DNA from: Bdellovibrionota bacterium FG-1
GTDB taxonomy: Bacteria > Bdellovibrionota > UBA1018
Assembly (NCBI GenBank): GCA_051382295.1
Contig: JBBCAW010000110.1
Span: 1-38,775, forward strand
Reading direction: 5' to 3'
DNA length: 38,775 bases
Position numbers and translations under genes: made by a program. The notes beneath the pieces are model-generated. The model was given only the letters and a program-made list of their open reading frames with translations. It did not search any database and had not been told where the DNA came from. Position 1 is the first letter of the stretch, and each line of letters opens with the position of its first letter. This document shows, in pieces, positions 4,797 through 38,775 of the stretch.

Positions 4797-5487
4797 GAAG
4801 CGCCCCTAAGCCCAACGCCTCACCGCTTACAGGTTCATGGGTACGTGATTCCAAGAACAGGTCGCGCTGATCGAGGGCATTGACGATTCGTTGCGCAATA
4901 TCGTCAAAATGGCTGCCGTTGTGCAAAAAATCGAGCTCGTCGCTGTCGATGATCAGTTTTTTGCCCAGAGAGTAGGTGTCTAGCCACTCATCGTAATAGC
5001 GATTGAGATCGACCAAATATTTGTCCGGAATATTTTTTTCGTAATCGCGCGCGCGGCGAGTGATGTGTTCCTTGAGGCGTGGAAGGGATTTGCGCAGGTA
5101 AATGACCAAGTCCGGCGGATTCAAAAACTGACACATCGAATGATAGAGGTCGAGGTAGTTATGGTAATCGCGTTTTTCCATCATGCCGTTCTCAAAGAGA
5201 TTGCGCGCAAAGATGTTGGCATCTTCATAAATACTTCGGTCTTGAATCGCGCTATTGGGGCCTTGCGTGATGTCTTGATGGGCCTTAAAGCGATTATTCA
5301 GAAAGAAAATCTGCAGTGGAAAGGACCAGCGCCCCATGTCCTGATAAAAATCGGCGAGGTAGGGATTGTTGGCGACCGCCTCAAAATGCGCATTCCAGCC
5401 GAAACGCTCGGAAAGCATGCGCGAGAGAGTGGTTTTGCCTGTACCGATGTTTCCGGCGACCGCGATAAAAATCTTCTCACTCGCCAA
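4732..5487 (-). CDS. Deoxynucleoside kinase (dAK/dGK family)
   Basis: IAVAGNIGTGKTT P-loop, DRSIYED and PDLVIYL motifs. Confidence 0.9.
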   Translation of the reverse strand: MASEKIFIAVAGNIGTGKTTLSRMLSERFGWNAHFEAVANNPYLADFYQDMGRWSFPLQIFFLNNRFKAHQDITQGPNSAIQDRSIYEDANIFARNLFENGMMEKRDYHNYLDLYHSMCQFLNPPDLVIYLRKSLPRLKEHITRRARDYEKNIPDKYLVDLNRYYDEWLDTYSLGKKLIIDSDELDFLHNGSHFDDIAQRIVNALDQRDLFLESRTHEPVSGEALGLGALLNHNDAKCPSETAELCNLSLL

Positions 5488-5681
5488 GCTGAATCCCCCC
5501 GCAGAAAAAATAGATGCCGATCTTAGTGATTAGAAGCAGGAGGCCGATCAAGTCAAGCGTCGGACAAAAAAAGGTGACGACGGGGTGCTTCCTGGTTGGG
5601 AAAGTTAGCGTTCAATGTCCTTTTACTGGACAACTTCCAAGGCCAGCGTTATGAGTCCCAGCCAACCAAAATTTTAGGAAA

Positions 5682-6194
5682 ATGATCATGAAAAAAACTT
5701 CGCTTTTGGCAATTATTATTGTGAGTTTCACTTTGGTTTTCGCTGCTTGCGGGAAAGACAATAGTGGCTCAACCCCCACTCCGGCTAAACCTGCCGGTCA
5801 GGGCGCTGGGGATTTGGGCGGAATCGGCGGCGGTGCAAAAGCTCCAACAGGCGGAACCGATCCAACAAATCCAGTGAAAACTCCGGCACCAGGAGCACAG
5901 AACTGCGCTGTCGGCGCGAATTTTTTCGGAAGCTGCGTTCAAAAAGACAAAATTTGCATCGATTACAGTGGAGTCTATGCACAAGTTGCCGAAGCCATTA
6001 AGAAAAGCTGTGTAGAAAATGATGGCGGAATCTTTTCTAATGCCGCTTGTTCGTTGGAAGGTATTTCTGGAAGTTGCAAGGTTTCCACGGGTACGGTGAT
6101 TGAAGTGGTGCTCCGTTTTCCACAAGATATGAAGCAAGCAGATGTCTCTATGGGCTGTACAGCTCAAAACAACGCGACCTTTTGCGCACCTTGA
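5682..6194 (+). CDS. Cysteine-rich lipoprotein, unknown function
   Basis: Signal peptide with lipobox FAAC, Gly/Pro-rich linker and a C-terminal domain with multiple Cys. Confidence 0.75.
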   Translation: MIMKKTSLLAIIIVSFTLVFAACGKDNSGSTPTPAKPAGQGAGDLGGIGGGAKAPTGGTDPTNPVKTPAPGAQNCAVGANFFGSCVQKDKICIDYSGVYAQVAEAIKKSCVENDGGIFSNAACSLEGISGSCKVSTGTVIEVVLRFPQDMKQADVSMGCTAQNNATFCAP

Positions 6195-18078: not shown

Positions 18079-18159
18079 GCGCACGCTGAGCAGCCAACCG
18101 GCGATGGCTTGACAGGGCCGGGTTCGTTGCCACCTTACAAAGAGGAGGCGAAGACCGTT

Positions 18160-20790
18160 ATGGCCGCTCAATTTACTAATAGTGCCCAAGAAGCGCTACA
18201 ACAAGCTCAGGCCGAAGCGATTCGGCGTGACCATCAAGATTTGCAGCCAGAACATCTTCTTTACGCGCTCTTAAGCGCTGATGACGAGGCGAGCGCGATC
18301 CTTCCTAATCTGCTTGAACTCGCAGGGGTTGATGCGCGCGCCCTTAAACGGTCGTTAGAAGGGGCTCTGAATAAACTTCCCAAGGTCACGGGCGGCAGCG
18401 GACAGATTTTTGCCTCCTCTCTTTTTAATCGTCTGATGGTCATGGCCGAAGAAGAAGCCAAAAAACTCGAGGATGAGTTTGTCTCCGGTGAGCATTTTTT
18501 GCTGGCCCTCTTTGGTTCGCAATTTAAGGATTCTGCGGTATTTCGGGCGTTAAGCGAAGTGGGTGCCAAGCGTGACAAAATCGAGGCCGCTATGAAGAAG
18601 GTCCGAGGAAGTCAAAAGATTCAAGACGCTGAACCGGAGGGTAAATATCGCGCCTTAGAGAAGTATTGTCGGGATCTCACGGCCTTGGCCCGCAGTCAAA
18701 AGTTGGACCCGGTTGTAGGGCGCGATGAAGAGATCCGGCGAGTGGTCCAGGTGCTTTCTCGCCGTACTAAAAACAATCCCGTGCTGATTGGTGAACCCGG
18801 AGTGGGAAAGACCGCCATCGCGGAAGGGCTCGCTCAACGAATCATTAATGGTGATGTCCCGGAGGGGCTCAAAGAAAAGCGCCTTTTAGTGCTCGATCTG
18901 GGTGCTTTGATTGCTGGCGCTAAATTCAGGGGCGAGTTTGAAGAGCGTCTTAAAACCGTTCTGAAAGAAGTGACCTCGGCACAAGGGGGCATTATACTTT
19001 TTATCGATGAGATGCACACCCTCGTGGGCGCCGGAAAAGCGGAAGGAGCAATGGACGCGGGCAATATGCTCAAGCCAGCGCTAGCTCGAGGAGAGCTGAA
19101 GTGTATCGGGGCCACCACTCTGGATGAGTATCGTAAGTACATCGAAAAAGACGCCGCGCTTGAACGGCGGTTTCAACCGGTTTTTGTCAAAGAGCCGACG
19201 GTCGAGGATACGATCAGTATTTTGCGTGGCCTTAAGGAACGTTACGAAATTCACCATGGTGTCGCAATTCGTGACGCGGCGTTAGTGGCGGCTGCGACGC
19301 TTTCTAACCGTTATATTACTGATCGATTTTTACCAGATAAAGCGATCGATCTGGTGGACGAAGCAGCCTCGCGGATTCGGATTCAGCTGGATTCGCGCCC
19401 CGAGGAAGTGGACCAACTGGAGCGTCGAATCTTGACGCTCGAAGTGGAGCGACAGGCGCTTAAAAAAGAAAAGGACGCTGGCTCGGTTGAGCGACTCAGG
19501 CAGCTCGAGGATGAGTTGGGTGGCTTGAAAAATCGCAGCGTGGGCCTAAAATCTCAGTGGGAACGGGAGAAAAAGGAGGTCACTGCGGTCAAAGATTTGC
19601 GCGCGCGAATTGAGCGGGTTCGCATGGACTCTGAAAGTGCTGAACGAAGGGGTGACCTCGAAAAGGCCGCCGAACTTCGTTATGGCCAGCTTCCGTCTTT
19701 GCAAAAAGAGCTCGAGGAACTTGGCAAAAAGGAAGTGCAATCCAAAAAAGGCCTCAGTTTGCTTCGGCAAGAGGTCACTGAAAACGATGTGGCCGAAGTC
19801 GTCTCTCGTTGGACGGGGGTTCCGGTCACGAGGATGCTCGAGGGCGAACAAAAAAAGCTTCTCAAAATGGAGGAGCGTCTCGCTGAGCGCGTGATTGGAC
19901 AGGCACAGGCCCTCGGCGCTGTAGCCAATGCGGTGAGGCGTTCTCGTATCGGCTTGCAAGAAAAGCATCGTCCGATGGGGTCATTTCTATTCTTGGGACC
20001 CACGGGCGTAGGCAAAACTGAAACGGCCAAAGCACTGGCTGAATTTTTATTTGATGATGAGCGCGCGATGGTGCGAATTGACATGAGCGAGTACATGGAA
20101 AAACACTCTGTATCGCGTCTCATTGGCTCGCCTCCGGGATACGTGGGATACGAAGAGGGCGGGGCGCTGACGGAGGCGGTCCGTCGTCGACCTTATTCGG
20201 TGATTTTGCTCGATGAAGTCGAAAAAGCACATCACGACGTCTTTAATATTTTCTTGCAGATTTTGGACGACGGCCGTGCAACGGATGGGCAGGGTCGCAC
20301 GGTCGATTTTACGAATACGATTATCATTATGACCTCTAATATCGGGAGCCATCTGATTCTTGAAGAGAAGGACGCCACTCGCCGCGAAGAAGGGATTATG
20401 CAGTTGCTGCGTTCTCATTTTAGACCCGAATTTTTGAATCGGATCGATGAGACGGTAATTTTTTCGAACTTAGAAAAGTCACAGCTTCGGCAAATTGTCC
20501 TGCAGTATGCCAAAAAATTGAGTGGCATGCTCAAGGAGCGAAGCTTGAGCTTGGAGCTGACGCCAGAGGCGGTCGATCTCCTTTGCGAAAAGGGCTATGA
20601 TCGTGATTTTGGCGCAAGACCGATGAAGCGCGTCTTTCAGCGCGAGATTCAGAACCCGCTTGCCATTGAAATCCTGTCTGGAAACTACCCTCCAGGGTCC
20701 ATTATTCGGACTCGGGTCGACAAAGGGGGCTTTGTATTTGAGCACTTTTTGGACAAAACGGGGTTAGGGGTACTGAGTTCTGTAAAATAA
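18160..20790 (+). CDS. clpB: Chaperone ClpB
   Basis: Two AAA modules ([16 protein letters not shown]), LSRRTKNNP, long coiled-coil M domain, GYVGYEEGG. Confidence 0.96.
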
Positions 20791-21305: not shown

Positions 21306-21380
21306 TGGGGCGTCGGCAAGTGGTAAGCTAGCGGATTTTGATTCCGCCATTCGAAGGTTCGAATCCTTCCGCCCCAGCCA
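21306..21380 (+). tRNA. tRNA-Gln (anticodon TTG), CCA encoded
   Basis: Acceptor TGGGGCG/CGCCCCA+GCCA. D-loop AAGTGGTAA. Anticodon stem GCGGA/TCCGC with TTG at 21338-40. T arm GAAGG-TTCGAAT-CCTTC. Confidence 0.96.
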
Positions 21381-23118
21381 ATTTTTCATCAAAGCCAACT
21401 TTTTCCGCTGGAATCAAATCAAGCGACGAGTTGGACTTCAAAACAAACCGTAACTCCCGCTTCCCATCCTTCCCCATCTCACCCACCACAATCCCATCAA
21501 ACAAACTCCGATAAGCTTTTTTCAGGGCCACTGGGTCCTGCTCCTGAATCAAATCCATGATCTTCCGGGCGTTGTCTGCCAGATCGCGCCACTTGAAATC
21601 ATCCGTCCCTACTTCTGACTTCTTTTTGTCTAATAGAGTCACAGCCGCCTCCAGGGTCTTGATCCGTTCCCGGATCCTTACCCCGGTGGCCTTGTACTCG
21701 CTCCGGTAGAGTTCGATCTCTTCCGCCGAAGCATCCTTGAGCAAGAAGTCGAGCTTCCGATCAGCAACCCGGCCTTCACCCCTCACCAACTCGATCTCTT
21801 GGAGTCGCTTCAACCTCTCGGCCTCAAGCAACGTCCCGGCATCCACCAGTTGCGAAGCCCTCTTCTGGATGGCCTCCCGGAGCCTGGGCGAGTTCTCAAG
21901 AACTTGCGCCACGGTCTGCCTGGCCTCGGCTTCGACCAAGTCCGCAGGAATACGGATGTCATTCTTTGCGTTCCGGTAATAGTTGTTCCTGTGGTTGGCT
22001 TCCTTGCCTCCATTGCCCCAGGCACCTGAACCAACGAACGTGGAGCCATCCAAATACTTCAAGAGCCCCTGAAGCAGATAGATCCGGGACAGCCTTGTGT
22101 TCTTTTCTTTGTTTCCCGCGATCTTCTTGATCGTTCGTTGGACGCTTTGCCATAACTCCAGGTCAATAACGCATCCATGAGAAAGATCCACGACCCTGTG
22201 TTGCTCGTAAGGCATAAGACGGTCTTGCCTCTTGTCTTTGAACTTTGCATTTATTTCCCACTTTCCGATGTACTTCGGATTGCCGAGCAATGTCCGAAGG
22301 GCCGCACAGGTAAATGGCTGCCCGTCCTTGTTCTTTAAACCCAGGCGATCACATTCCTCTCGCAGCCTTTGGTAGGATTCATATTTCAGAAATGTTCTCA
22401 TGATCCACTCGACGGCCTTTAGCTCATCAATATTAGGTTGGTAAAAGCCAACCTTCGCTTCGCCATTTTTTACTAGTTGGTCCAATCCAAAGAGTTTATG
22501 GGTGGCATTGAACTTTCCAGAGTTAATCATTGCAGAAAAAACGCTCTCCTTTAGTCGCTTCGAGTTGACTCTGGATTCATATTCCGCGAAAGCACTCAAA
22601 ATATCCAACTGGACCAGATGTGATGGATCGTTGGGGTTGAATGGAAACCCCCGAATTACAATCTCACAATCATGATCGATGCAAAGTTTGAAGAACCCCT
22701 TCCATATCAGGGTTTCTCGCGCAATACGTGTAAGTTCCTTAACGATAACAAACCTTCTTCGGCCCTGCTTGATGTCTCGCTGAAGGCGTTGAAACTCTGG
22801 TCGGTTATCATGAGTCCCGGTTATGCCCGGCTCAATGTAGACATCGACGATTCGGTAATTGATCTTGTTCGCGGTTGACCGCGCAATCGCCTCTGCAAAG
22901 AGAATATGGATCTGCTGTTCGAGTGAACCCTTTTCAACCGAGACTTGCTCTAGGTCCGAAAGTCGGATGTAAGCAGCGCCATCGATTGTTTCCCAGTCAG
23001 GGTTGACCGGCTTCCACTTCCGAATGTAGTCTCTCGAAATTGCTTTGCAGTCGGAAATGATCCGTTCAATGTTTGCCCTCTGCTCAGCTCGACTCAGGTC
23101 CGCTACTTTCTTCTCCAT
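21328..23118 (-). CDS. Large serine recombinase (integrase)
   Basis: YIRLS catalytic motif, 'YIEPGITG...RPEFQRL', 'KELTRIAR', 'AFAEYES..S.R', recombinase domain (LGNPKYIG), degenerate Zn-ribbon (YLLQGLL) and coiled coil. Confidence 0.9.
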   Translation of the reverse strand: MEKKVADLSRAEQRANIERIISDCKAISRDYIRKWKPVNPDWETIDGAAYIRLSDLEQVSVEKGSLEQQIHILFAEAIARSTANKINYRIVDVYIEPGITGTHDNRPEFQRLQRDIKQGRRRFVIVKELTRIARETLIWKGFFKLCIDHDCEIVIRGFPFNPNDPSHLVQLDILSAFAEYESRVNSKRLKESVFSAMINSGKFNATHKLFGLDQLVKNGEAKVGFYQPNIDELKAVEWIMRTFLKYESYQRLREECDRLGLKNKDGQPFTCAALRTLLGNPKYIGKWEINAKFKDKRQDRLMPYEQHRVVDLSHGCVIDLELWQSVQRTIKKIAGNKEKNTRLSRIYLLQGLLKYLDGSTFVGSGAWGNGGKEANHRNNYYRNAKNDIRIPADLVEAEARQTVAQVLENSPRLREAIQKRASQLVDAGTLLEAERLKRLQEIELVRGEGRVADRKLDFLLKDASAEEIELYRSEYKATGVRIRERIKTLEAAVTLLDKKKSEVGTDDFKWRDLADNARKIMDLIQEQDPVALKKAYRSLFDGIVVGEMGKDGKRELRFVLKSNSSLDLIPAEKVGFDEKLAGAEGFEPSNGGIKIR

Positions 23119-23755: not shown

Positions 23756-24874
23756 ATGGAAACTTCTGGCCAGGTTGGAGACCTATTTTTGGCGCTTCAT
23801 CGACTAACGAGTCGCGGGGTCCAGTCCCCTTATGGGTCATTGCGTTATTTTGCCGGTAGGCAGGCGTTAAAAGATGGGACGAACTCGAAACACCTAGCTA
23901 GGAGCAAGATCGAGGATGCTGCTTTGGAAAATTTTGTAAAGATTGTCGCCGAGCGATGGAGGAACAGAAGGATCATAAAAGACCCAGGAAAACGGGCGGG
24001 TAAAACAAAGCTCACCAAAAAAGACATGGAGCCCGAAGGTCTTGAAGACGCTCTTCCGGGAATCTGCGTAAGGCTAAGGGACCTTCAAAATCGGCTTAAC
24101 GAACAAAATCCGGTACGGCCCCTTTTTGTCGGTCCGAATGGCTCAGCGATGGATCGTCTTCGATACATGGCTCCAGAACCTGGAATTGTAATTTTTTATC
24201 TGCTCGCTCTAAGTTGTGTTGAATACGACATTGACGGAATAATCACCGCCCTAAAGTTGGTTTCAAAAAGTGTGAAATCGAACGCGAGAGGGCAACTTGA
24301 TTTTGAGCGTCATTTTTGCCCTTTATATAAATGGTTGGATGCCATGAGTGATTCCACGACGTTTCGTTTGGGTCGTTTCAATAAATCAGGAGAGAGAGAA
24401 GACCCCGCCCTTGCCTTTAGAGTTTTCATTCAGGCCATGACTGGCACAGAACGACGGCGCAGATCAGTGAAGGCAAGGCGGTCACGCAAAAAGGAACGAA
24501 CAGCGAACTGCACTGAGCATTCATGGATAGCGGATCAAATTCCTGAAGTGCTTTCCAAAGCAAAACTGGGGCAGTCGCGCACTGACTTATACCGATCTTG
24601 GTCAATCAAGTTGATGCAGGATCTGCTAATTGAGGCCGGAGAAACAGAGGAGACTGCTACGGAGGAACTCACCTGCCTGTTCAGTGACCTTAAAGGAAAA
24701 ACTATTCGATTCAACGGAGTTGTTAAGCCACAAGACCCAATTCATAGAGTAGCTCTTCCTGATCCAGAGTACGCACTGAATCGGCTTCGGCGACTTCATA
24801 CTCTTGCTTGTTATAGGGAATATATTACTCCGCCAGTCGTCCCGAAGAAAACTAAACGACTCGTTTCAGGCTAG
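23756..24874 (+). CDS. Hypothetical protein (basic, 372 aa)
   Basis: Long ORF with no recognisable family motif. Confidence 0.6.
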   Translation: METSGQVGDLFLALHRLTSRGVQSPYGSLRYFAGRQALKDGTNSKHLARSKIEDAALENFVKIVAERWRNRRIIKDPGKRAGKTKLTKKDMEPEGLEDALPGICVRLRDLQNRLNEQNPVRPLFVGPNGSAMDRLRYMAPEPGIVIFYLLALSCVEYDIDGIITALKLVSKSVKSNARGQLDFERHFCPLYKWLDAMSDSTTFRLGRFNKSGEREDPALAFRVFIQAMTGTERRRRSVKARRSRKKERTANCTEHSWIADQIPEVLSKAKLGQSRTDLYRSWSIKLMQDLLIEAGETEETATEELTCLFSDLKGKTIRFNGVVKPQDPIHRVALPDPEYALNRLRRLHTLACYREYITPPVVPKKTKRLVSG

Positions 24875-24917
24875 AAGTATTCCTGCCGTAAGGTTCCTCG
24901 CAGAAAGCTGAGGAATT

Positions 24918-25193
24918 ATGAAACCAAATGAAAAGCTATGGCTTGCAATTGAGTCAGTTGGACTCAAAAAACAGAAAGTCGCCCAAGAACTTGGGGTATC
25001 CCCTAAGACAGTATCTCATTTTATTCACGGCATCGCCCAGCCGACTCAAGACCAAAAGTGGATTCCGTCCAGGCTTTTGCGGGTAGCCGCGAACGAGCTT
25101 TTTTCAGATTGGACCGAAGCCCCTTTGGGCGTCGAAACTGCTTCACTTAGTGGGTCAGGACTCCGTCGTGGCCATTGCGGTGAAGAGTTGTAG
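24918..25193 (+). CDS. Cro/XRE-type helix-turn-helix protein
   Basis: GLKKQKVAQELGVSPKTVSHFIHG...P. SD GAGG upstream. Confidence 0.75.
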   Translation: MKPNEKLWLAIESVGLKKQKVAQELGVSPKTVSHFIHGIAQPTQDQKWIPSRLLRVAANELFSDWTEAPLGVETASLSGSGLRRGHCGEEL

Positions 25194-25288
25194 GCTCGCT
25201 CCACGGTGAGGCAGCTTTTTCAACGAGACGAGGCCGCTTGCTACGCCCTCGTCTCAAAATTCATTCAACTATCCAACATGAAAGTTAA

Positions 25289-26620
25289 GTGACTATGCAA
25301 GAATATAAACATAGACCGACTTTAATTAAAAGTGGGAACGATGGTCTCCATACCTTTGGATGTAATCTTTCTGTAAATTTCCCACACACAACACCACCCC
25401 CACTCACCTGGGATACCCATCACTCCGTGGATGTGTCCCCGTCTGCCGTCTTCGCTTCCATGCCTGAAGGGCAGCAGCCGGAGCGTAGCGACGGAAGTGT
25501 GTGTGTGCGGAGCGGTAGCGGAGCACCTAGACTCTGCCACCCGGCCCTGGATCATGTCACGATCGAGGTTCACTATCGCCTCCAGTATTCAAATCCGAAT
25601 CCACAGACGCGAACTGCCGCATATTCGGAACGGGAGTTAGCTCGAACAAAAGAAAATATAAAGAAGATGTTTCCGCGCCTGATTCGGGAAAGTGAGTCAA
25701 ACCTCCGCAAGCGATATCCAAAGGAAGGAACCCCCATTACTGAGGGGCTACTTGTTTATCCTTCTAGCCCGAATTCGATGTTCGTTAAACATGTCATCAA
25801 GATTTCAGCACTCAAGTCTTGGAGACGGAAATCTTCAAAAGAGTACAAGGAAGTTGATCTCCAAGGTGAGGATAACTTCATTCCGTTTGAGACGCAGTCC
25901 GAACGCATCATGGGGGATCAGTCTTCAGAGCTGGGGGCGATTATCGACTCGATGAAGGCCGCCTTGCTTGGGCATTTCCAGGATAGGATTGCGCTAACGA
26001 GAAAGCGCCTGATGAGATACGAGATTGCCTTCGATTTTCCGTATGAAGGTCAGGAGCAGCTTCGCGCCATTCAGGAGGTCATTCGTTCTCATGCTATCAA
26101 AGGTAGCTTCAGAGAGACGCAAGACAACGGGTTTAAGGGTTTTACCGGAACTCTTGGCGATGGGGAGGAGATTACTATTTATACCAAAGGCAAAGACAGG
26201 CTTAGATTGGAGCTGAGGGTGCGCAGCTCCAGTACCAATAAGAAGAACAAGGTCAGAACTGATTTTACTGAACGTAGTCTGCTCTCGGTTATCAAGGACG
26301 TAGTGGAAGAACGCCAAGGCTTAATTTCTCGGTGCATCAGCGTGAGGCCGGATTCCAAAATACCTACCAGCAATACGGTGTCATTCGAGGCCTTGATGAA
26401 TGCGTTGAGATCTATTGTCAGTACAAAATGTGCGGTCGATGTAACAGAGTTGTATCTGGCCACTGGCCAGGTTCACTTCCGTGACAAAACGCCTATGCGA
26501 AAGTATGCGTCTGAGAAAGCGAAGTTGGATCGGGCTGGAGTTTTGATTCGCGTGGCTCGCGGCCAATACGGACTGGATCTCGAAAAGCTTTTTAATCAAA
26601 CGAAAGGACTCCTGACATGA
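25289..26620 (+). CDS. Putative Rep_trans-like rolling-circle replication initiator/relaxase (start uncertain)
   Basis: LDHVTI, RYEIAFDF (cf. RxDxAxD), IYTKG (cf. YxK catalytic Tyr) and RLELR (cf. RxE) occur in the Rep_trans order. Confidence 0.55.
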   Translation: MTMQEYKHRPTLIKSGNDGLHTFGCNLSVNFPHTTPPPLTWDTHHSVDVSPSAVFASMPEGQQPERSDGSVCVRSGSGAPRLCHPALDHVTIEVHYRLQYSNPNPQTRTAAYSERELARTKENIKKMFPRLIRESESNLRKRYPKEGTPITEGLLVYPSSPNSMFVKHVIKISALKSWRRKSSKEYKEVDLQGEDNFIPFETQSERIMGDQSSELGAIIDSMKAALLGHFQDRIALTRKRLMRYEIAFDFPYEGQEQLRAIQEVIRSHAIKGSFRETQDNGFKGFTGTLGDGEEITIYTKGKDRLRLELRVRSSSTNKKNKVRTDFTERSLLSVIKDVVEERQGLISRCISVRPDSKIPTSNTVSFEALMNALRSIVSTKCAVDVTELYLATGQVHFRDKTPMRKYASEKAKLDRAGVLIRVARGQYGLDLEKLFNQTKGLLT

Positions 26621-27246
26621 ACCCAAAAGATAGAGCGGAAGTTGAAGCACTCTACCAACATTTTTGCCTCGAAACTCAGCGTCTGGGGTTTCCGGGGAGC
26701 TTTGCGACAAGGCCACGGTCCTATCAGTACGAGCAGAGTCGGGACATAATTCGGCATCTGGGATTGGACCGGGCCAAAGCGGTCATCACCTTTGCGATTC
26801 AGCACTGGGTCGAATATCGAGACGAAAGTCGTTTTTGGGAGCGTCTTCATGTCTACCCAAATTTCAATCAAATGCTGCCGGAGTGGCATTACTCTAAATG
26901 GTTGAGTAATATGATGGAAGAGGACTTGCTTGAATCCGAGTTTGGAAAAAATCGGGATGAGACCACCTATGGCCTATCCAAAGAAGCTTTGCACCAAGCT
27001 GTTTTGTTATTTTATGTCTCCACGAATGAGGAGTTGGTGGCCTCTGGGCTAGAGCCCTTTCCGACGCTAATTGATAGGAAGGACTACAGGATCATAGAGG
27101 CCGCTCTGCTCGGACATGGAGTCGAGGCCGCGAAAAAGAAAATGAAGGGTCATGTCGCGGTGCTTGGGCGGGATAAGCACAATCCAAAAAGTGAGTTCCG
27201 TAACTCACCCTGCCAGTTTGAATTTCTTTTGTTGGGAATGGATTAG
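26617..27246 (+). CDS. Hypothetical protein, translationally coupled to the Rep-like gene
   Basis: ATGA overlap at 26617-26620. Confidence 0.6.
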   Translation: MNPKDRAEVEALYQHFCLETQRLGFPGSFATRPRSYQYEQSRDIIRHLGLDRAKAVITFAIQHWVEYRDESRFWERLHVYPNFNQMLPEWHYSKWLSNMMEEDLLESEFGKNRDETTYGLSKEALHQAVLLFYVSTNEELVASGLEPFPTLIDRKDYRIIEAALLGHGVEAAKKKMKGHVAVLGRDKHNPKSEFRNSPCQFEFLLLGMD

Positions 27247-27453
27247 GCAGCAGTGATGGGGTGAAAAGAGGGAGCCAATATCGACGGACTTATTCGCAGG
27301 GGTTACCGCACAAATGCGGTAAGGTCGTTGATCGATATTGGCTTCTCATATATGGTAATGGACGTAGTTCTCGTTTTTTTGTTGACCCTCGTTGAGAAAT
27401 AACCGGAAGGCAGAAGGGAGCCTTCCTTTGTTGAATTTTTAAGAGGGGGCAGC

Positions 27454-28692
27454 ATGCCTACTGTTTCTACCAGTCAGTTTATTTTGCGTGAGATCGATAT
27501 CCCAAGTTCAGTGGATCTCCAGATTGATCCACTTGCGGTGCGTTATCCTTTTTCGGAAGAACGGGTAAAGGCCCTGGCTGACGATATCCGAAAGAATGGC
27601 CTGATCCAGCCGGTTGTTGTACGCGAGGGAAAGGTCATCGCAGGCAGGCATCGGCTGAAGGCATGTTTGTTGGCCGGGGTGCCGCCGAGGTTCCTGGAGC
27701 TTGTTGGTGACTGCTCCGTTGAAGCCTGGGTGCTGGGTGACAATTCGGTGCGGCGGCATGAATCGGCATCCCAAAGGGCTTGTGGTGCGGTTTCCTGGCT
27801 CCCATACTTTGAGAACGAAGCAAGGAACCGGCGAGAGGCCGGGAAGCCTGTCCTTGGAACTCTGGGAGGCGCAGCGGCCTTAAAAGCAGGTAATGTTTTC
27901 GGGGTAGGTCAAAGGTATGTTGAGGCTGCCAAACAGCTCCATGATGCAGACCAAGAGGCCTTCCTAAAAGTGTTTTCTGGTGAGCTGACACTTTCGGCGG
28001 CGGGAGCGAGGCTGAAGAAGAGGAAGGGATGTACGAAGTTGGCCGGGGACTGGAAGTCGGCTTCATTCGAGTACATTGATCGCGAACCGGCAGAGTTTTT
28101 GAAAACGGGTGAGCAAAAGTTCGACTTGTTGATTGCTCGCCTGAGCACCGAACTTCTTGCGAAGTACCCATTGGCCGATTGGGTTGGACACCTTGCTCAG
28201 GTAGCCCCGACTGGACACGCGATCTTGGTAATGGATTTTTCAGTGGCCTGCCAAGTGAGGTTTGAGCTGGATCGTCTCGGAATGCTGGCAGGAGTTCAAT
28301 TTCTGATTAGTTTTAACCCGGTGATCGATCAGTCTAATGGCGTCGTTCGTGCTGAGAAGCCAGGGGACAAGATCTTTTACCGTCGTGATCATGTTGAGAA
28401 CTTTTTTGTCCTCTGCCACATTCGTTTAAGCAAAGACTCGAAGTTTCTTCGGTTCACGAAGACCTCTGAACTTGGGGCCGTTATTGATTTGGGCCACGGA
28501 GCTGGATCAGTCTCAATGCGTCTCGCCTCAGTTTGGATTGAGCGAACTTGCGCATCCACAGTCTTGGACTTGTTTCCCGACTCCGAGGCATCGTTCGCCC
28601 GGTCGGCTGCGGTTCTGGGGCGGAAGGGATACGCCCTTGGCCGAGAGCCGGAGGCCAGTCTGATGGATCGCACTCGGACTTTGGCGGGATAG
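27454..28692 (+). CDS. ParB N-terminal domain fused to a degenerate N6/N4 DNA methyltransferase-like domain
   Basis: LADDIRKNGLIQPVVV...IAGRHRLKAC (ParB/Srx) and N..RRH..SQRA. C-terminal FDLLIA and VLDLFPDS...SAAVLGR resemble MTase motifs. Confidence 0.65.
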   Translation: MPTVSTSQFILREIDIPSSVDLQIDPLAVRYPFSEERVKALADDIRKNGLIQPVVVREGKVIAGRHRLKACLLAGVPPRFLELVGDCSVEAWVLGDNSVRRHESASQRACGAVSWLPYFENEARNRREAGKPVLGTLGGAAALKAGNVFGVGQRYVEAAKQLHDADQEAFLKVFSGELTLSAAGARLKKRKGCTKLAGDWKSASFEYIDREPAEFLKTGEQKFDLLIARLSTELLAKYPLADWVGHLAQVAPTGHAILVMDFSVACQVRFELDRLGMLAGVQFLISFNPVIDQSNGVVRAEKPGDKIFYRRDHVENFFVLCHIRLSKDSKFLRFTKTSELGAVIDLGHGAGSVSMRLASVWIERTCASTVLDLFPDSEASFARSAAVLGRKGYALGREPEASLMDRTRTLAG

Positions 28693-28755
28693 ATCGGCAT
28701 CTTACGATAGGTGTTTGGCTGATTCCCGGAGTGATGCCAGCACTCTTGGATCAGT

Positions 28756-29550
28756 TTGACCAGGTATGAGGAACTAATCCCAACTTCCGACGGATTTTTG
28801 AGGTGTGTTATGGCGCTGTCACAAATGAATGCCTGGGAACAAGAGGTCGGGGACGCACTCAAGCGAGCGGAGCAAATCCGGGCACCTGCCTCGGTTCAAA
28901 ATTACGGGGTCGAGAAGATCAAAAGGCTCCGTTGTTTCGAGTGGGTCAAGTCCGAAATTTTGGCAGGAACTCCGGCCCGGCAGGTTGCGGCGGAGATTCA
29001 GGCCAAGGGGGAATTGATCGATTTGAAGCCTGAGACCGTTAGGCGTTATCTGGAGTCATATCGGTCCAGCTTGTCGCCTCTACAGAGGATCGCCAACCTC
29101 GGCAGTCCTGATCAACTTGCCGATCTTCGGGGTCGTGTGGTCAAAACTCTCGATGTGATCGGGGAGCTTGAATCTCTTTTCCGCATGATGAAGGGACGAC
29201 TTGAAAAGGTTGTGAGCACGGAGGAGTCCTTGGGGTTTCTCTTGGAGGGGGCTCACAAGGAATTTCAGACTGCGCTGGACATTTTGTCACGGATTCACGA
29301 ACTGAAGGGGCGGCCAGAAGTGTGGCAGAAGGAAGAGGAGCCTTCGCCGCCTTTGGTGGAACAGATTGACTGGAGCCTGGTTTACGACGCGCCGAATGTA
29401 AATGCGGTGTTAAAAAGTGCGGACTCGCGTGCCCGGATCTTACGGTTCGTCGAGACTGTCTGTGGTGTTTTTGGTCCAATGACAGCGGAAAAGCAGGAGC
29501 GGATTCTTGAAGTTGCCCGGCGCAGGACTGCCTCACCGCAGCAAAAATAG
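28756..29550 (+). CDS. Hypothetical helical protein with an HTH-like segment (start uncertain)
   Basis: ILAGTPARQVAAEIQAKG...KPETVRRYL followed by helical/coiled segments. Confidence 0.5.
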   Translation: MTRYEELIPTSDGFLRCVMALSQMNAWEQEVGDALKRAEQIRAPASVQNYGVEKIKRLRCFEWVKSEILAGTPARQVAAEIQAKGELIDLKPETVRRYLESYRSSLSPLQRIANLGSPDQLADLRGRVVKTLDVIGELESLFRMMKGRLEKVVSTEESLGFLLEGAHKEFQTALDILSRIHELKGRPEVWQKEEEPSPPLVEQIDWSLVYDAPNVNAVLKSADSRARILRFVETVCGVFGPMTAEKQERILEVARRRTASPQQK

Positions 29551-29771
29551 ATTACGGGTTTCAGGATTTTGAACCTATGTTTGTGGCTGCGCGGATGGGC
29601 TGATGCCGGAAAAAATGGCCCGACAACGTGGTGTTGCTAGGAAATTTCCTGTGAATGTTGAGAAATTTAGTCGGTGGTAACGGACTGTTACTGGGACTTT
29701 TTTCGGAGTGTAACAGACTCTGCGATGTGGAATGGATCGTTCGGTAAAAATAGATTACGGGTTTCAGGATT
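29543..29771 (+). repeat. Perfect 26-bp direct repeat AAAAATAGATTACGGGTTTCAGGATT, two copies
   Basis: Copies at 29543-29568 and 29746-29771. Confidence 0.9.
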
Positions 29772-29846: not shown

Positions 29847-30677
29847 TCACGGCCAACTGCTGCTAGCTCTGATTTTCTGGCAATAGCTTTTCTTTGTATT
29901 TGCGCGATTGAAGTGGGGTTGCACGTTTGGCGAGTGGAAATTACCGCGTGGCTTTCCGAAATCCCGTGCGATTTGTTTAACCTCAACCATCAGCTGTTCG
30001 TAGTCGGCCATGCAGTCCTTGTATCGTGCCTCTCTTGCCTGGGACTGGTCGACGCTTCGATGATGCAACGGTGGGGTTGGTGTTTCTGCTCTGACGACTG
30101 ACTCTGTCCTGATCATGATCGTTTGAACTTTGGCCTGTTCGATAGCAGACATCTTTGCCTCAAGTACTGCCATCTTTTGCTCGGCAGCGGCGGTGCGGCT
30201 TTCTTGCTTTCCGATTATCATATAAACGCGGTCCTTGATGCTGTTCCAGACCGAATCCTGGGGAGTGAGTCCCTCAAGTTGCGAATAAATATCCTGATTT
30301 CGAACGAGTTCTGGGTTTGATAGCGACCTTCGGCTTTCGCCCTTTGCTTTGATTGCCTCTTCGCAGGCGGCAGTGTTAATACCGGCACGAGCGTAGGCTC
30401 TGAAGTTTTTGTCGGAAAGTTGTTCCAGATACCGATCCCAAATGACGATATCTCTGTGGGCAAGTGAACACTCTGAAATCACGTTCTTCACTGCCATCGA
30501 CTCCGCTTTGAACCGGGCCACTTCAGGGGTTGGGCCGAGGCCCTGTCCTGCGTGCATGATATCCCCACCGATAACGTGCCTTGATTGGCGATCGAGCCAT
30601 TCAGGGCGTGGTTCAGCAGCCATACACAGGGTGATAGTTAAAATGAAATACAGGATTGAGAGTGCGGTGACCTTCAT
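29847..30677 (-). CDS. Secreted protein (LPP20/FlgT-N-like G.G.T...A...A...A motif, then coiled coil and Cys pairs)
   Basis: Signal peptide MKVTALSILYFILTITLCMAA and GQGLGPTPEVARFKAESMA. Confidence 0.6.
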   Translation of the reverse strand: MKVTALSILYFILTITLCMAAEPRPEWLDRQSRHVIGGDIMHAGQGLGPTPEVARFKAESMAVKNVISECSLAHRDIVIWDRYLEQLSDKNFRAYARAGINTAACEEAIKAKGESRRSLSNPELVRNQDIYSQLEGLTPQDSVWNSIKDRVYMIIGKQESRTAAAEQKMAVLEAKMSAIEQAKVQTIMIRTESVVRAETPTPPLHHRSVDQSQAREARYKDCMADYEQLMVEVKQIARDFGKPRGNFHSPNVQPHFNRANTKKSYCQKIRASSSWP

Positions 30678-30755: not shown

Positions 30756-31220
30756 TCAGGCAACATTAGTAGTGCCAGTAACATACAGTAATTCCAATCT
30801 GGATTTGAAGACCAATACTCCGAACACTCTTTCATCGGAGTTCGCGAGGAGATCTCTCGCCCTTAACATGAGACCCTCAAGGATTTCAGTTTTGTCGAAA
30901 TGACGTAATATTTCGTCCGACAAACTCAGGGTATGGATGTCGCAACCATCAATTAGGCAGCGGCTGACTATGGCAGTCAAACCGTCACCAGCGGCCTTTC
31001 GGGTCTTAATGTGCGCCAAGAGATGCACAACGATTGCCGAGGAAATCGATGGGTCTTGATTGTCCTGCTCGTTAAATGAAATCTTCACCAACTCATCCAC
31101 TATACTTACGTTATCTGAATTCGCACAGTTTACTTCTCTTTGAACGGAGATCCCCGGCCCTAATACAGGTTTTATATTGTCAGCTTTGGTGTTTGAGTTG
31201 CCCTTGGCTTTGAGTTTCAT
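30756..31220 (-). CDS. Hypothetical protein (154 aa)
   Basis: Starts 6 nt after the stop of the ClpX-like gene. No family recognised. Confidence 0.6.
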   Translation of the reverse strand: MKLKAKGNSNTKADNIKPVLGPGISVQREVNCANSDNVSIVDELVKISFNEQDNQDPSISSAIVVHLLAHIKTRKAAGDGLTAIVSRCLIDGCDIHTLSLSDEILRHFDKTEILEGLMLRARDLLANSDERVFGVLVFKSRLELLYVTGTTNVA

Positions 31221-31226
31221 TCTTTA

Positions 31227-32159
31227 CTAAACTTTAGCCCCGTGACATTTTTTTACGATCTCTTTCGTGATAGTCACGACCCCTTTAGGGCAGCCAAAAA
31301 TAATAAATTCTTTAATCTCTGACATTATCTTAGGTACGATCCTCATTCCATACTTTGGATTCTGTGCTGCCATTGCTAACTCTAAAAAGGCGGTGTTGTC
31401 GAATTCAACCTCAAACCCCTGTTCCTTCATCTCATCAAAAAATGTCACGATCATCTCGTCCTGGGCAACGCGCCTAACGACATCTTCAGTACTTGGGAGG
31501 TCAGTGGATGCGAATTTCTGTATCCGCCCAAGAAGCTCATTCTTAAAGCCATACTTTATGAGATCATCTGAATTCAATTTTGGCTGCGCCTGCTTCATTT
31601 CGTCGGTATAAGAGAACGCTCCGGCAAAAATCCACAGCGAGTTTCGAGTGTCAATGGCACCCTCTTGGATTCCTTGAATCAGCGTGAGCAGCTCCGATTG
31701 CAGTGAGTGGCTCTTATGAATGTCCCCACCGTTTGCAAATTCTGAGAGTTTATCAAACTCATCCAAAATGACGATGCAACCTCTCGAAGCCATCATATTC
31801 CCGCTAAAAAATCCAGTAAGGGAGTCTCGCAATGTATTTCCAACGTAGCCAGATGGTACAAGGCCAGAAGCATCGATCAACAGATAGGGGAGTTCAAAAT
31901 CAGGAACACATTGTTGGAGTAAATAAGTTTTACCAGAGCCACTCGGACCAGACACCAATAGATGCATTCGCCTGGTTCGGTTATTGATGAACTCTGACAA
32001 TGACAGCGCTAAAGACTGCTTGTATTTGGTGTTACCGATAATAGCTCTGTCTAACCGATCAAAAATAGACTGAGCGTTCCATGCCGCCTTGGATTTTGAC
32101 TTCTCCGTCTCTACCAAGGCCATTATTTCCCTAATTTTGGCTTCATCGAACTGTGACAT
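31227..32159 (-). CDS. ClpX/HslU-clade AAA+ ATPase, minimal (no Zn-binding domain, no IGF loop)
   Basis: IIGN, GPSGSGKT, DAS...GYVG, VILDEFDK, LQSELL.LIQG, IDT.N.LWIFAGAF, DLIKYGF..ELLGRI, YGMR. Confidence 0.85.
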   Translation of the reverse strand: MSQFDEAKIREIMALVETEKSKSKAAWNAQSIFDRLDRAIIGNTKYKQSLALSLSEFINNRTRRMHLLVSGPSGSGKTYLLQQCVPDFELPYLLIDASGLVPSGYVGNTLRDSLTGFFSGNMMASRGCIVILDEFDKLSEFANGGDIHKSHSLQSELLTLIQGIQEGAIDTRNSLWIFAGAFSYTDEMKQAQPKLNSDDLIKYGFKNELLGRIQKFASTDLPSTEDVVRRVAQDEMIVTFFDEMKEQGFEVEFDNTAFLELAMAAQNPKYGMRIVPKIMSEIKEFIIFGCPKGVVTITKEIVKKCHGAKV

Positions 32160-32161
32160 GT

Positions 32162-34330
32162 CTAACCCGCCTTCTTGATGCCTGTGATATTTAGGAGTTC
32201 CTCAACGTCAGCTCTTGAAACCCTTTCTGCATGTTCCGTGATTATGTGTCTCGTCTTATGGCGTCTGAAGAAAGTTTGATCGATTTTATCGAAGGCTCTG
32301 ACGAATCCGCCTGTTTCCATACAATAATGACAAAGTAGTGCAAGCGCATCGTCATCGTATTCTAAACCCCGCCTTGTGCAAACATGACCCACGGCTTTCA
32401 TTAAAGTTTCCAACGTCCAACCTGGGAATCGCCAGTCCGAGAAGTCTATACTTCCCCCTAATGCATTTCCAAAAATAGCTGTCAGACCATTAGTCAGCTG
32501 AAGTGCCGAATTATCCAAAGACGGTACCGTTCTCAAGAAAACAAAATATACAGGCTTTAAGGAATAGTTTGTTTTCAGCGCGTGGCGAAAGTCCATTAGT
32601 TCAGGCGACGGCCCGTTTGCCGCGTCTGTATCAAAAAACTCGTCTGGCAAATCAAATAGAACGAGCAGTCGTTTCTCTACAGTATTGGCTACTTGCAAGG
32701 AGCTGCAATCCGAGATTTTCACATACTTAACGCCTAAGTCGGGCAGGTTGAGGCCAGGAATTTCGTCAGTCAATCCGGAAATCCGTTGCGCAACCTCAGT
32801 TTTCCCGGTCCCTTGGGTTCCCCAGAAACATCGCATTCTACTTTTTGAGCTTAATAGAAAATCCTCTAGGTCCACCGAGAAGTGTTTTATGATTGAATCT
32901 AGTCCAACCATTCCCGTCATACTTTTTGTCAATTGTATTCTGATCTCAACAGCCGTCAACTTGACTGGAGGTGAAGTATTTTCCAATTCTTCCGACTTTG
33001 AAGTATCTTTCAGTAGTGCTCTAATTCTGTTATCAAATGTCTTGTCACAGGCCGCCTCACCAGCGTTATCTGTAATTCGTTTATCAGCGCCGTGGTGGAG
33101 CAACAGTGTCACTGCGAGTTCATGGTCATTTGCTGCCGCAATCATAAGTGCCGTTTGAGATTCCCTATTTTGTTTATCTAGGGTGGCCCCGGCTCCAATC
33201 AGCAACTCACATACATTAACAAAGCCGCCCTCCGCAGCGGCCATCAAGGGAGTATTGGATTGGTTACTTGAATTTACGTTGGCTCCGATTTTTATTAGCA
33301 GTTCAACGATGCCGTGGTAGCCACCAAGCGATGCGAGATATATGGGGGAATTTCCCTCGTCATTTTTAATTTCTGTATCGGGTTTTCTCTTTCCTATCTC
33401 CTCGGCGATTTTCAGAAAACCGTGCTCAGCGGCTATGGCTAATGACGTATTTCCGAACATGTCTTTTTCGTTAATATTCTTCATGCGAGCGATATTTTGT
33501 TTTACAAACTCCAAGTCGTCGGCCTCAATTTTTGACATAAATTCTTCAATATCCAATGCACCACTGGTGGTGTCATCTTTTTCTTGGCAAGTTCTATTTT
33601 CGTTTTGCACGCCATCACTGAATCCGTGCGCCTTGAAAATCTTTTTAAGAGCAGGACTTCCATCTTCAAAAATACCTGCCAAAAGACTATAACCTCTGGA
33701 GTCTTTGATGTAAGGACTAGCTCCTTTTTTTAAAAGTTGTTGCACAAGGTCGCCGTGATCGTTTTCTACGGCACAGGAGAGCGCAGTTTCTCGCTCTGCG
33801 TTTCGTTGATTGACATCAATGTCGGCGCTACTTAGCAAGAGGCTCGCGATTTCTAAATTTGATTGGTCTGCCGCCACAATTAAAGGAAAATTACCACTAT
33901 CGTTTTTGATGTTGGAGTTTGCACCGACTGCGATGAGCAGTTTAACAATCGAGCAATCTTCATTTGAGCAGGCGAAATGCAAAGCAGTGTCGCCACTTGT
34001 GTTTTTCAGATCTGGTTTGGCTTTATTTGTAAGTAAAAGACTGACCACATCTACATGCGAGGCGGAGGTGGCTAACATTAGAGCTGTTTCTTGCTCCTCA
34101 CTTCGGATATTTATGTCGCCGCCGGTTGCAATGAACTCACGCACTATTTGGATGTCACCATCGGAAGCGGCCTGGAGGAAAGTATCATCGCTGACATTAC
34201 CTTTATTCTTGGCCAATGAGTTACCTCTCTTTACATTTTGCGTGAGTTCGGGGGAATCCAATATCTTCCCATATGCCGACATCTTTTGATCTACCTTCCT
34301 ATCGGAAGGGGCCCTTTTTTCTTTAATCAT
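32162..34330 (-). CDS. Ankyrin-repeat protein with C-terminal divergent AAA+ domain
   Basis: Two blocks of ankyrin repeats (TALMLA, TALHFA, TPLMAA, etc.), then MVGLDSI, Walker A GTQGTGKT and Walker-B-like LLVLFDLPDE. Confidence 0.85.
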   Translation of the reverse strand: MIKEKRAPSDRKVDQKMSAYGKILDSPELTQNVKRGNSLAKNKGNVSDDTFLQAASDGDIQIVREFIATGGDINIRSEEQETALMLATSASHVDVVSLLLTNKAKPDLKNTSGDTALHFACSNEDCSIVKLLIAVGANSNIKNDSGNFPLIVAADQSNLEIASLLLSSADIDVNQRNAERETALSCAVENDHGDLVQQLLKKGASPYIKDSRGYSLLAGIFEDGSPALKKIFKAHGFSDGVQNENRTCQEKDDTTSGALDIEEFMSKIEADDLEFVKQNIARMKNINEKDMFGNTSLAIAAEHGFLKIAEEIGKRKPDTEIKNDEGNSPIYLASLGGYHGIVELLIKIGANVNSSNQSNTPLMAAAEGGFVNVCELLIGAGATLDKQNRESQTALMIAAANDHELAVTLLLHHGADKRITDNAGEAACDKTFDNRIRALLKDTSKSEELENTSPPVKLTAVEIRIQLTKSMTGMVGLDSIIKHFSVDLEDFLLSSKSRMRCFWGTQGTGKTEVAQRISGLTDEIPGLNLPDLGVKYVKISDCSSLQVANTVEKRLLVLFDLPDEFFDTDAANGPSPELMDFRHALKTNYSLKPVYFVFLRTVPSLDNSALQLTNGLTAIFGNALGGSIDFSDWRFPGWTLETLMKAVGHVCTRRGLEYDDDALALLCHYCMETGGFVRAFDKIDQTFFRRHKTRHIITEHAERVSRADVEELLNITGIKKAG

Positions 34331-37962: not shown

Positions 37963-38649
37963 ATGGATGATGCTATGAAAGAGAAACAAAAGCAGGTTGG
38001 GTTTGGCGTAGTATTATTCGCAGTCATTTGCTCACTCGTTTTCAGCCACCTTGCCGACATTCTTCTCACAATCGCAACGTTCATATTTTTCGCGGTTAAC
38101 TATGCTGCAATCAAAAGCCGCCTTTACTTGTCTACCGGAGTGTTCTCCCTAATATTTCAAGCCTGCGTACTTTTATTCTATCCGTACAATCATGCCGCTC
38201 TTTATGTCTCTGCCTACAGCCTGCTGTCGCTTCTGATGATTCTAATTGGATATGCATTTCACCATAAGTCCGTTTCTGAAACGCGAGTTGCGGTAGTTGC
38301 GACACTGTTTTTGTTGTGGTCGATCCCGTTTGCTGGAAAGTTTATTGGTAATCAGTACATTGAAAAGGCGAACCTGAGGGTGGATGCAGCGATTACCAAA
38401 TTTCGAGTGTGGCAGCAACCAGTTCGGAAACCGGCATCGAACAAGGGTGAAAATAAAAAGAGGCCCCAAAGTAAGAGGCAAATAGCAACCGTTTCATCAG
38501 AGCGGCCTCAACTACCAGTTGAGGTTGCCCTGGCCCTTGGTTTTCCTTTTATTGTTTTATTGTTGAGCGGAATTATTGAGTCAACGCGGGAACAAAAGAA
38601 CGATAGTAGCCGATCACCTGCATCTGTATTGGGGCAGTCGCTATGCTGA
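37963..38649 (+). CDS. Integral membrane protein, unknown function
   Basis: Several hydrophobic segments. SD GGAG upstream. Confidence 0.6.
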   Translation: MDDAMKEKQKQVGFGVVLFAVICSLVFSHLADILLTIATFIFFAVNYAAIKSRLYLSTGVFSLIFQACVLLFYPYNHAALYVSAYSLLSLLMILIGYAFHHKSVSETRVAVVATLFLLWSIPFAGKFIGNQYIEKANLRVDAAITKFRVWQQPVRKPASNKGENKKRPQSKRQIATVSSERPQLPVEVALALGFPFIVLLLSGIIESTREQKNDSSRSPASVLGQSLC

Positions 38650-38775
38650 AAAAACACTAGAGGGTGGTGCACGAAGTTATTGAAAAGTCCCCTCGATTGA
38701 CGTTGGTTAGGGAAGTCACAAAACAACCCAAGCCATAAACAACCGAGGAGACCGTAATGAAGACAAAGAAAATCA

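Follow-up and report, generated by a model that had tools for sequence, protein, structure and literature searches.

A ClpX-clade ATPase lacking zinc, RKH and IGF modules, carried with two partner genes in an apparently undescribed cassette

The model AAA+ unfoldase, ClpX, is studied as one half of a protease. In the E. coli enzyme, as described in the consulted parts of the sources, the IGF loops make most of the contacts with ClpP (PMC7112951), the RKH loops are important for substrate recognition, and the Walker, arginine-finger and sensor-II residues are required for hydrolysis (PMC7112951; PMC9035409). Non-degradative remodelling is also on record for this clade, and mitochondrial ClpX activates ALAS through partial unfolding from an unstructured N-terminal tail, according to the available portion of PMC7077987. 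The part of PMC5430801 at hand deals with canonical ClpXP only, and the literature that we searched, mostly the main texts of non-subscription papers, contained no description of the family or the cassette reported here.

The window that we analysed is the whole stretch of 38,775 nucleotides from Bdellovibrionota bacterium FG-1. It contains three adjacent genes, referred to here as A, B and C, with B upstream of A and ending 2 nt before the A start, and C downstream of A and starting 6 nt past the A stop:

32162..34330, reverse strand: gene B, 722 aa, with ankyrin repeats at about residues 50-430 and a C-terminal degenerate AAA domain
31227..32159, reverse strand: gene A, a ClpX-clade AAA+ ATPase of 310 aa that lacks the zinc domain, the RKH loop and the IGF loop
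30756..31220, reverse strand: gene C, 154 aa, about 60 N-terminal residues of low model confidence followed by a compact alpha/beta domain

An intact clpP-clpX pair lies on contig C12 of the host genome (4.44 Mb, 97.7% complete, 5.0% contamination), and that ClpX has the zinc domain, the RKH loop and the docking loop. The initial annotation had noted that no clpP or hslV gene lies near gene A, which is correct: no clpP is found in the window, ClpP-family matches occur only on contigs C12 and C3, and neither HslV nor an HslU above the cut-off was found anywhere in this 97.7% complete genome. Since the host has an intact clpP-clpX pair, it is the missing IGF loop, and not the neighbourhood, that argues against the use of ClpP by A.

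The ATPase and its family

The reading frame of gene A is unbroken, with 0 internal stops, and its features are as follows:

32094..32144, reverse strand: conserved N-terminal helix, residues 6-22, at the position of the ClpX zinc domain (pLDDT about 65-73)
31926..31949, reverse strand: Walker A GPSGSGKT, residues 71-78 (G71, G74, G76, K77 and T78 invariant in 81/81 family members)
31839..31850, reverse strand: pore-1 loop GYVG, residues 104-107 (family consensus GYKG)
31758..31763, reverse strand: Walker B Asp133-Glu134 (invariant in 81/81)
31647..31673, reverse strand: pre-sensor-I stub in the place of the RKH hairpin (two-residue-strand hairpin predicted, residues 165-170)
31551..31616, reverse strand: short linker Phe182-Tyr203 at the ClpX IGF-loop site, by alignment
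31524..31526, reverse strand: arginine finger Arg212 in ELLGRI (invariant in 81/81, aligned with the ClpX EFIGR motif)
31341..31343, reverse strand: sensor-II Arg273 in YGMR (invariant in 81/81)

Alignment to the genome's own ClpX, with which A shares about 22% identity, shows that box II, Walker A and B, the arginine finger and sensor II are all kept, and the Walker motifs, GYVG, ELLGRI and YGMR that had been read from the letters are indeed present in the window protein. The C4 zinc domain is absent, the RKH-bearing segment has 6 residues vs 21 in the host ClpX (15 shorter), the segment with the IGF-type loop has 19 vs 43 (24 shorter), and the pore-2 loop is shortened and rewritten. These losses agree with the initial annotation, which had described a ClpX-like ATPase stripped of all three modules, except that the zinc domain has not simply been truncated but is replaced by the conserved helix at residues 6-22.

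The AlphaFold model of A has a mean pLDDT of 89, and its ten best Foldseek matches are all ClpX (TMq 0.70-0.75). Overall, the ClpX matches of the model reach a TMq of about 0.70-0.76, and the resemblance in fold corresponds to a TM of 0.73-0.76. The top PDB sequence matches are likewise to ClpX (E 8.6e-17), with HslU next. Scores against the family models are nevertheless far below the cut-offs, at 78.6 bits vs 359 and 71.8 vs 370.75 for the NCBIfam ClpX models and 34.7 vs 362 for the HslU model TIGR00390.

A search with A gave 233 matches, among which 85 others form a discrete set with 42-64% identity and lengths mostly of 301-315 aa, parted from other ClpX-like proteins by a gap in E-value from 1e-52 to 1e-21. 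An index-free search added three members (P0123-P0125) and gave ten clusters at 50% identity, and the family numbers about 88 proteins. In the alignment of 81 near-full-length members, from which fragments and N-terminally extended forms were left out, the catalytic and ATP-site residues are invariant in 81/81 and are the counterparts of those that E. coli ClpX needs, as given in the part of PMC7112951 consulted. The deletions are equally uniform: the spacer at the RKH site is 7 residues long in 81/81, the motif [ILVM]G[FL] occurs at the IGF site in 0/81, and CxxC occurs within the first 60 residues in 0/81. The C-termini are variable, with no conserved tail among the 81. The GYVG of the window protein is not a family trait (1/81); GYKG is found in 40/81 members and an aromatic pore-1 residue in 72/81. 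The initial annotation had gone on to propose a protease-independent unfoldase, and of this the protease independence is well supported at the level of sequence, by the lack of an IGF-type loop in 81/81, of a conserved C-terminal tail and of HslV; the unfolding part enters below as a step of the proposed mechanism.

The A family is under strong purifying selection. The closest pair (L008/L009), which is the sole unsaturated one, has a dN/dS of 0.016; between the window A and its relatives dS is saturated in 11/11 pairs, with dN of 0.32-0.60. In trees of 91 and 38 rows, the second built without three long-branch B rows, A forms one clade (SH-aLRT 98 and 94) outside canonical ClpX, although an AU test did not reject a clade of A and canonical ClpX (p 0.054). 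Many members carry a ClpX label in JGI and NCBI, so that the family is mislabelled in these databases; AHI05136.1 from the cultured Bdellovibrio bacteriovorus W, for instance, is annotated simply as ClpX.

Two members (P0041 and P0123) have ankyrins fused to ATPase A itself, and P0084 has an 80-residue N-terminal extension that begins with a hydrophobic segment and is perhaps membrane anchored. No family member was found among the PLSDB plasmids (79 records) or the INPHARED phages (214 records), where all records were below 60% identity and those among the matches listed were at 25-27%, nor among 27 viral-contig loci (best E 4e-22). Metagenome contigs contain at least one member among the matches listed (57 loci). 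ClpX-like AAA domains also occur in tandem, two or three to a chain, in proteins of 700-1240 aa (P0126-P0134), and most of them lack RKH or IGF motifs. These proteins were considered as A-B fusions and rejected, as the domains of the five tested fell outside A and B in trees. An 808-aa protein of a Helicobacter plasmid, annotated as 'AAA family ATPase' (L136:2585-5011), resembles ClpX in its C-terminal part, at 26% identity, and does not belong to family A.

Partner genes, loci and island

What stays constant in B is, by its sequence, an AAA domain that is paralogous to A and has degenerated:

32165..32980, reverse strand: AAA domain of B, Walker A lysine and sensor-II arginine kept, Walker B glutamate aligned to leucine

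In hhalign this domain can be aligned to A across both subdomains (probability 98.4%), and in a mixture-model tree B is the sister of A (SH-aLRT 86), on a long branch. The hhalign comparison with A shows that the pore-1 segment is deleted in B, and the window's domain has neither an arginine finger nor a pore-1 aromatic loop. In a 10-row alignment of B the Walker A lysine is kept in 10/10, the canonical Walker B DE in 7/10, sensor-II in 6/10 and the arginine finger in 5/10. The N-terminal part is variable, being made up of ankyrins in 7/11 B proteins, of a membrane helix and a non-ankyrin region in 2/11 and of a short low-complexity stretch in 2/11. A membrane helix is predicted in 6/11, while the other 5/11, the window's protein included, have none at the threshold used.

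Protein C is small and has no matched fold. Its model has pLDDT <50 over residues 6-17 and 19-59 and is confident from about residue 61, and the low-confidence N-terminal region is also polar. The confident part holds an invariant core of Cys and His residues:

30900..30959, reverse strand: Cys88, Cys/His93, His96 and His107 of C, candidate metal (zinc) site

C88, H96 and H107 are invariant in 29/29 C homologues and position 93 is Cys or His in 28/29, and the invariance of this core suggests a metal site, probably for zinc. A single-sequence homologue search with C matched 1/64 candidates, namely C itself, and a profile search matched 20/7038. No credible Pfam family was found in a scan of 28 members (best E 0.006, in 2 members), nor any match to a PDB sequence, and Foldseek gave nothing with an E of 0.001 or lower in PDB or BFVD; a search of the Atlas with a C homologue gave no usable match, and no toxic domain is recognisable. 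VIA-align against 48,161 chains gave a best Z of 3.7 (rmsd 4.7, 90 aligned), and its repeated rows for class II aldolase and GAF were rejected as too weak.

Fourteen distinct loci were compared (the window, L003-L012, L018, L106 and L108). The hosts that carry a name are Bdellovibrionota, one MAG of the Myxococcaceae, one 'delta proteobacterium' and a MAG with the label Pseudomonadota. All three genes are adjacent in 11/14, and C, which adjoins A in 13/14, is the most constant partner. The genes often overlap or stand a few bases apart, and they occur in at least four arrangements: B-A-C, B-C-A, A-B-C and a divergent layout interrupted by an endonuclease I gene, which in L003 (L003:9104-9922) separates A from the C-B pair. 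L012 and L018 have A with C, B being hidden by short contigs. The A gene of L006 has only an 87-aa B stub after it, with no C and no B AAA domain found in the genome, and B is frameshifted in L009. The initial annotation had named the upstream ankyrin protein as the most plausible adaptor of the ATPase. A link between the two is real, as seen from the adjacency in 11/14 loci and the ankyrin-A fusions P0041 and P0123, but ankyrins as the constant element do not hold, as they are missing in 4/11 B proteins. Protein C, the most constant partner, had been passed over in that annotation.

The distribution of the cassette is patchy. A was found in 4/401 genomes of the window's phylum and in 1/401 of that of L005 (the centre genome being counted in both), and C in 1/75 genomes of the window's family. 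In one family with 182 genomes, A was present in 6; all of these also have C, and 5/6 have B, and neither B nor C was found in the other 176/182, which have no A. The B and C profiles derive from these very loci, which makes their positive matches circular and leaves only the misses informative. The distances of the three proteins co-vary over 10 loci (Spearman 0.82 for A-B and 0.68 for A-C), for which linkage alone would suffice. Promoter-like sites were at the level of chance (7 vs 7.9 expected), and terminator-like sites numbered 10 vs 5.2 expected, none of them clear for the cassette.

The cassette is often located on tRNA-targeting islands of predatory bacteria. In the window its GC is 0.444, and only 0.17% of 1158 genome windows are as low. 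The following features mark the island:

21306..21380, forward strand: tRNA-Gln(TTG), likely integration site of the cassette-bearing island
21328..23118, reverse strand: large serine recombinase at the left end of the island (Pfam Resolvase and Recombinase)
29847..30677, reverse strand: accessory gene D, 276 aa with a hydrophobic N-terminus, homologue beside the cassette only in L003
35831..36445, forward strand: small serine resolvase, with a close homologue beside the L004 cassette (E 1.8e-42)

Relatives retain spoVG, most of them with clpB before it and tRNA-Gln after it (8/11 loci with the tRNA), and differ downstream; the host ClpB gene lies at 18109-20790. No second att copy was found, and the contig ends in a repeat: the last 143 nt of the window (38633-38775) are identical to the ends of contigs C132, C129 and C32. 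The right end of the island is not seen because this multi-copy repeat broke the assembly at the contig end. A second tRNA-Gln(TTG), 92% identical to the window's, is present at G000:C143:3957-4032 and is either a paralogue or contamination. Elsewhere, L003 and L004 are near tRNA-adjacent tyrosine recombinases, L005 is near an excisionase-like gene, and L007 and L108 are near transposases.

The core of the island (23756-29550) consists mostly of unannotated genes (372, 443, 209 and 264 aa) together with an HTH and a ParB-N protein. The four large proteins have no match in Pfam, NCBIfam, PHROG or PADLOC, and the core may be an integrative element that has yet to be described. Between the forward-strand block of the island and gene D lies a pair of identical 26-nt direct repeats (29543-29568 and 29746-29771), 203 nt apart, which are possible sites of binding or recombination.

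PADLOC gave 0 family-level matches for A, B and C and generic domain matches only for 65 neighbours, with no known defence system flanking the cassette. Genes that recur next to the cassette encode exported proteins and a class III nucleotide cyclase of the membrane (L008, L009 and L106). An exported protein follows the A-B-C cassette in four loci (L007:13463-14506, L008:12042-14218, L009:13453-15632 and L106:5165-7375), and the gene after it encodes the cyclase in L008, L009 and L106 and IS1380 in L007. Related membrane proteins with DnaJ-type CxxCxGxG zinc repeats lie beside the cassette in L007:7621-9486, L011:12258-14030 and L108:11685-13067. In L010, a classical-clade AAA ATPase (99-1499), with an IetA-like match below cut-off, lies directly upstream of the cassette and a TIR-domain membrane protein (4939-6006) directly downstream.

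Mechanism and rival readings

Because of the roles that the missing modules have in E. coli ClpX, A can be said to have the engine without the protease dock or the usual substrate selectors. Our proposal, which we hold tentatively and at slightly less than even confidence, is that A and its partner B form a protease-free ring motor that would grip the predicted disordered tail of C and remodel C. In this scheme A would, with high probability, assemble as a hexamer and hydrolyse ATP, and activation of ClpP by A would, just as probably, be impossible. The AAA domain of B, expected to bind nucleotide but poorly catalytic and devoid of a pore loop, would probably join the A ring or dock on it and bring a swappable targeting module, in the form of ankyrins, a membrane anchor or both. 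We give somewhat under an even chance to the last step, in which C would serve as the dedicated client and threading from the unstructured N-terminus would release or switch its probably zinc-bound domain; the action of mitochondrial ClpX on ALAS, as described in the accessible part of PMC7077987, would be an analogous precedent. As the RKH loop is missing and the pore-2 loop is shortened, the grip of A may be weak or specialised, and selection for A could come from the co-travelling parts B and C. Against this proposal, a disordered tail alone does not make C a client, L006 has A with only the 87-aa stub of B and no C found in the genome, and B is frameshifted in L009.

The biological role is the least certain part of the proposal, and by a narrow margin we prefer a mobile switch in conflict or defence to signalling at the envelope. 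The patchiness, the island location and the variable sensor-like domain point to the conflict role, and the lack of an evident effector and the exported and cyclase neighbours point to signalling. A defence role is weakened by the lack of family-level PADLOC matches for A, B and C and of a recognisable toxic domain in C.

The alternative that survives best, although we consider it unlikely, is that C, instead of being the client, acts as a cofactor or adaptor and supplies in trans a metal module for the lost zinc domain, so that the A or A/B ring acts on an outside target (of host, prey or phage) chosen by the ankyrins of B. It is exactly the substrate-selecting zinc and RKH modules that A has lost, C is the most constant partner (13/14 loci) and has the candidate zinc site, and the N-terminus of B varies as a sensor would. 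However, the ligands (Cys, Cys/His, His, His) do not resemble those of the C4 zinc domain in the host ClpX, no fold link between C and that domain was found, and no gene for an outside target is conserved across the loci.

It is improbable that B is the client, with A disassembling or recycling membrane-anchored B oligomers and C acting as a regulator in an envelope-linked signalling module. The decay of the catalytic residues of B, the membrane helix predicted in 6/11 B proteins, the exported proteins that follow the cassette in L007, L008, L009 and L106 and the class III cyclase in L008, L009 and L106 would all fit, but the helix is not predicted in 5/11 B proteins, the window's among them, at the threshold used, the accessory genes vary among loci, and ankyrins can be fused to A.

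Quite improbable, too, is a stand-alone stress disaggregase in which A would work with the ankyrins of B on general aggregates, like Skd3/CLPB or a mobile ClpB-type chaperone. The combination of ankyrins and an HCLR-clade AAA domain is the architecture of Skd3, as presented in the consulted part of bioRxiv 2022.02.17.480866, and it occurs as a single chain in P0041 and P0123. The AAA domain of A is nevertheless nearest to ClpX and HslU, with Skd3 not among the best 60 of 106 PDB matches, and the host already has ClpB (18109-20790). A general chaperone would also leave the strict need for C and the rarity of A (4/401 and 1/401 genomes) unexplained.

That A feeds substrates to the host ClpP or another peptidase by a non-canonical contact is very improbable: the host does encode ClpP, the AU test does not reject A as a sister of canonical ClpX (p 0.054) and the JGI and NCBI labels of many members say ClpX, but IGF-like motifs are found in 0/81 members, the C-terminal tail is not conserved, the loci share no peptidase gene, and A reaches only 72-79 bits with the NCBIfam ClpX models, whose cut-offs are 359-371. 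A decaying clpX pseudogene, for which only the missing modules would speak and which the initial annotation had named as a possible refutation of its own reading, is a negligible prospect, because the family is under strong purifying selection (dN/dS 0.016 in the one unsaturated pair) and the frame is intact, the same clean deletions are present in 81/81 and A is only about 22% identical to the host ClpX.

Returning to the ring motor of A and B that would remodel C, a fuller version of it can be drawn, which we regard as speculative and unlikely: an undescribed mobile three-part conflict switch of predatory bacteria, built as a heteromeric AAA+ ring of a ClpX-derived motor and its catalytically decayed paralogue, in which the swappable ankyrin or membrane module of the paralogue would sense an invader and license the motor, which would then unfold or release a zinc protein whose fold is new. 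If the conflict-switch reading were true, bacteria would have evolved an ankyrin-AAA+ remodeller independently, and the cassette would provide a natural example of a heteromeric ring of the ClpX type. Since the paralogous partner and the candidate client are packaged together with the motor, the mechanism can be tested with three purified proteins, and a cultured carrier is available in Bdellovibrio bacteriovorus W (AHI05136.1).

Comparison with known systems

A is most like ClpX (TIGR00382 / NF003745; PDB 3hws, 6vfs, 8e91), which is its best match in both sequence and fold and with which it shares box II, Walker A and B, the arginine finger, sensor-II, the position of pore-1 and the large and small AAA subdomains. 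It differs from ClpX in its identity of 22-25%, its scores below the family cut-offs, its own N-terminal helix, the shortened pore-2 loop and the missing zinc, RKH and IGF modules, as well as in having no linked clpP and in having B and C as partners. HslU, which is not known to have an IGF loop either, provides (TIGR00390) the next-best PDB matches after ClpX, but A, at 310 aa, has no I-domain insertion, its HslU matches falling into two pieces or to the 310-aa entry, and no conserved C-terminal tail, and no HslV was found in the genome.

The mitochondrial ClpX-ALAS pair resembles the proposed action of A on C in combining a ClpX-clade motor, non-degradative remodelling and a single client (PMC7077987, in the part consulted). 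The mitochondrial system is, in contrast, eukaryotic and encoded by a single gene, with a known enzyme as the client, no paralogous partner and no co-mobile client. Yeast is not known to have ClpP.

Small mobile operons that pair an AAA+ ATPase with a dedicated partner are found in Iet (IetA-IetS), Dodola (DolA-DolB) and the TRIP13-HORMA type of CBASS. The PADLOC matches of A to IetA (E 1.6e-7) and DolB (E 1.1e-5) are weak and confined to the P-loop region, and A differs from IetA in scoring 27.9 bits vs a cut-off of 510. No S8 protease (IetS), HORMA or DolA match was found among the cassette proteins or 65 neighbours.

Skd3, or human CLPB, has an AAA domain homologous to NBD2 of ClpB and was, to the knowledge of the authors of bioRxiv 2022.02.17.480866 and in the part of that text consulted, the only protein to combine ankyrins with an HCLR-clade AAA+ domain. 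The cassette supplies bacterial ankyrin-AAA+ fusions and thus the pairing held there to be unique to human Skd3: the likeness is seen in B (7/11 loci), P0041 and P0123, though not in the window A. The AAA domain here looks more like that of ClpX and HslU, its best matches, than like that of Skd3, and it is degenerate in B, and the likeness is likely to be convergence.

In conclusion, ATPase A is a variant of a known motor, that of ClpX, within an apparently undescribed system, and the cassette also offers the small protein C, for which no fold was matched. As a natural and conserved minimal engine of the ClpX clade without the zinc, RKH and IGF modules, ATPase A invites the question of what the bare motor is capable of, and the point that sets it apart from the systems above is the fixed trio of A, B and C.
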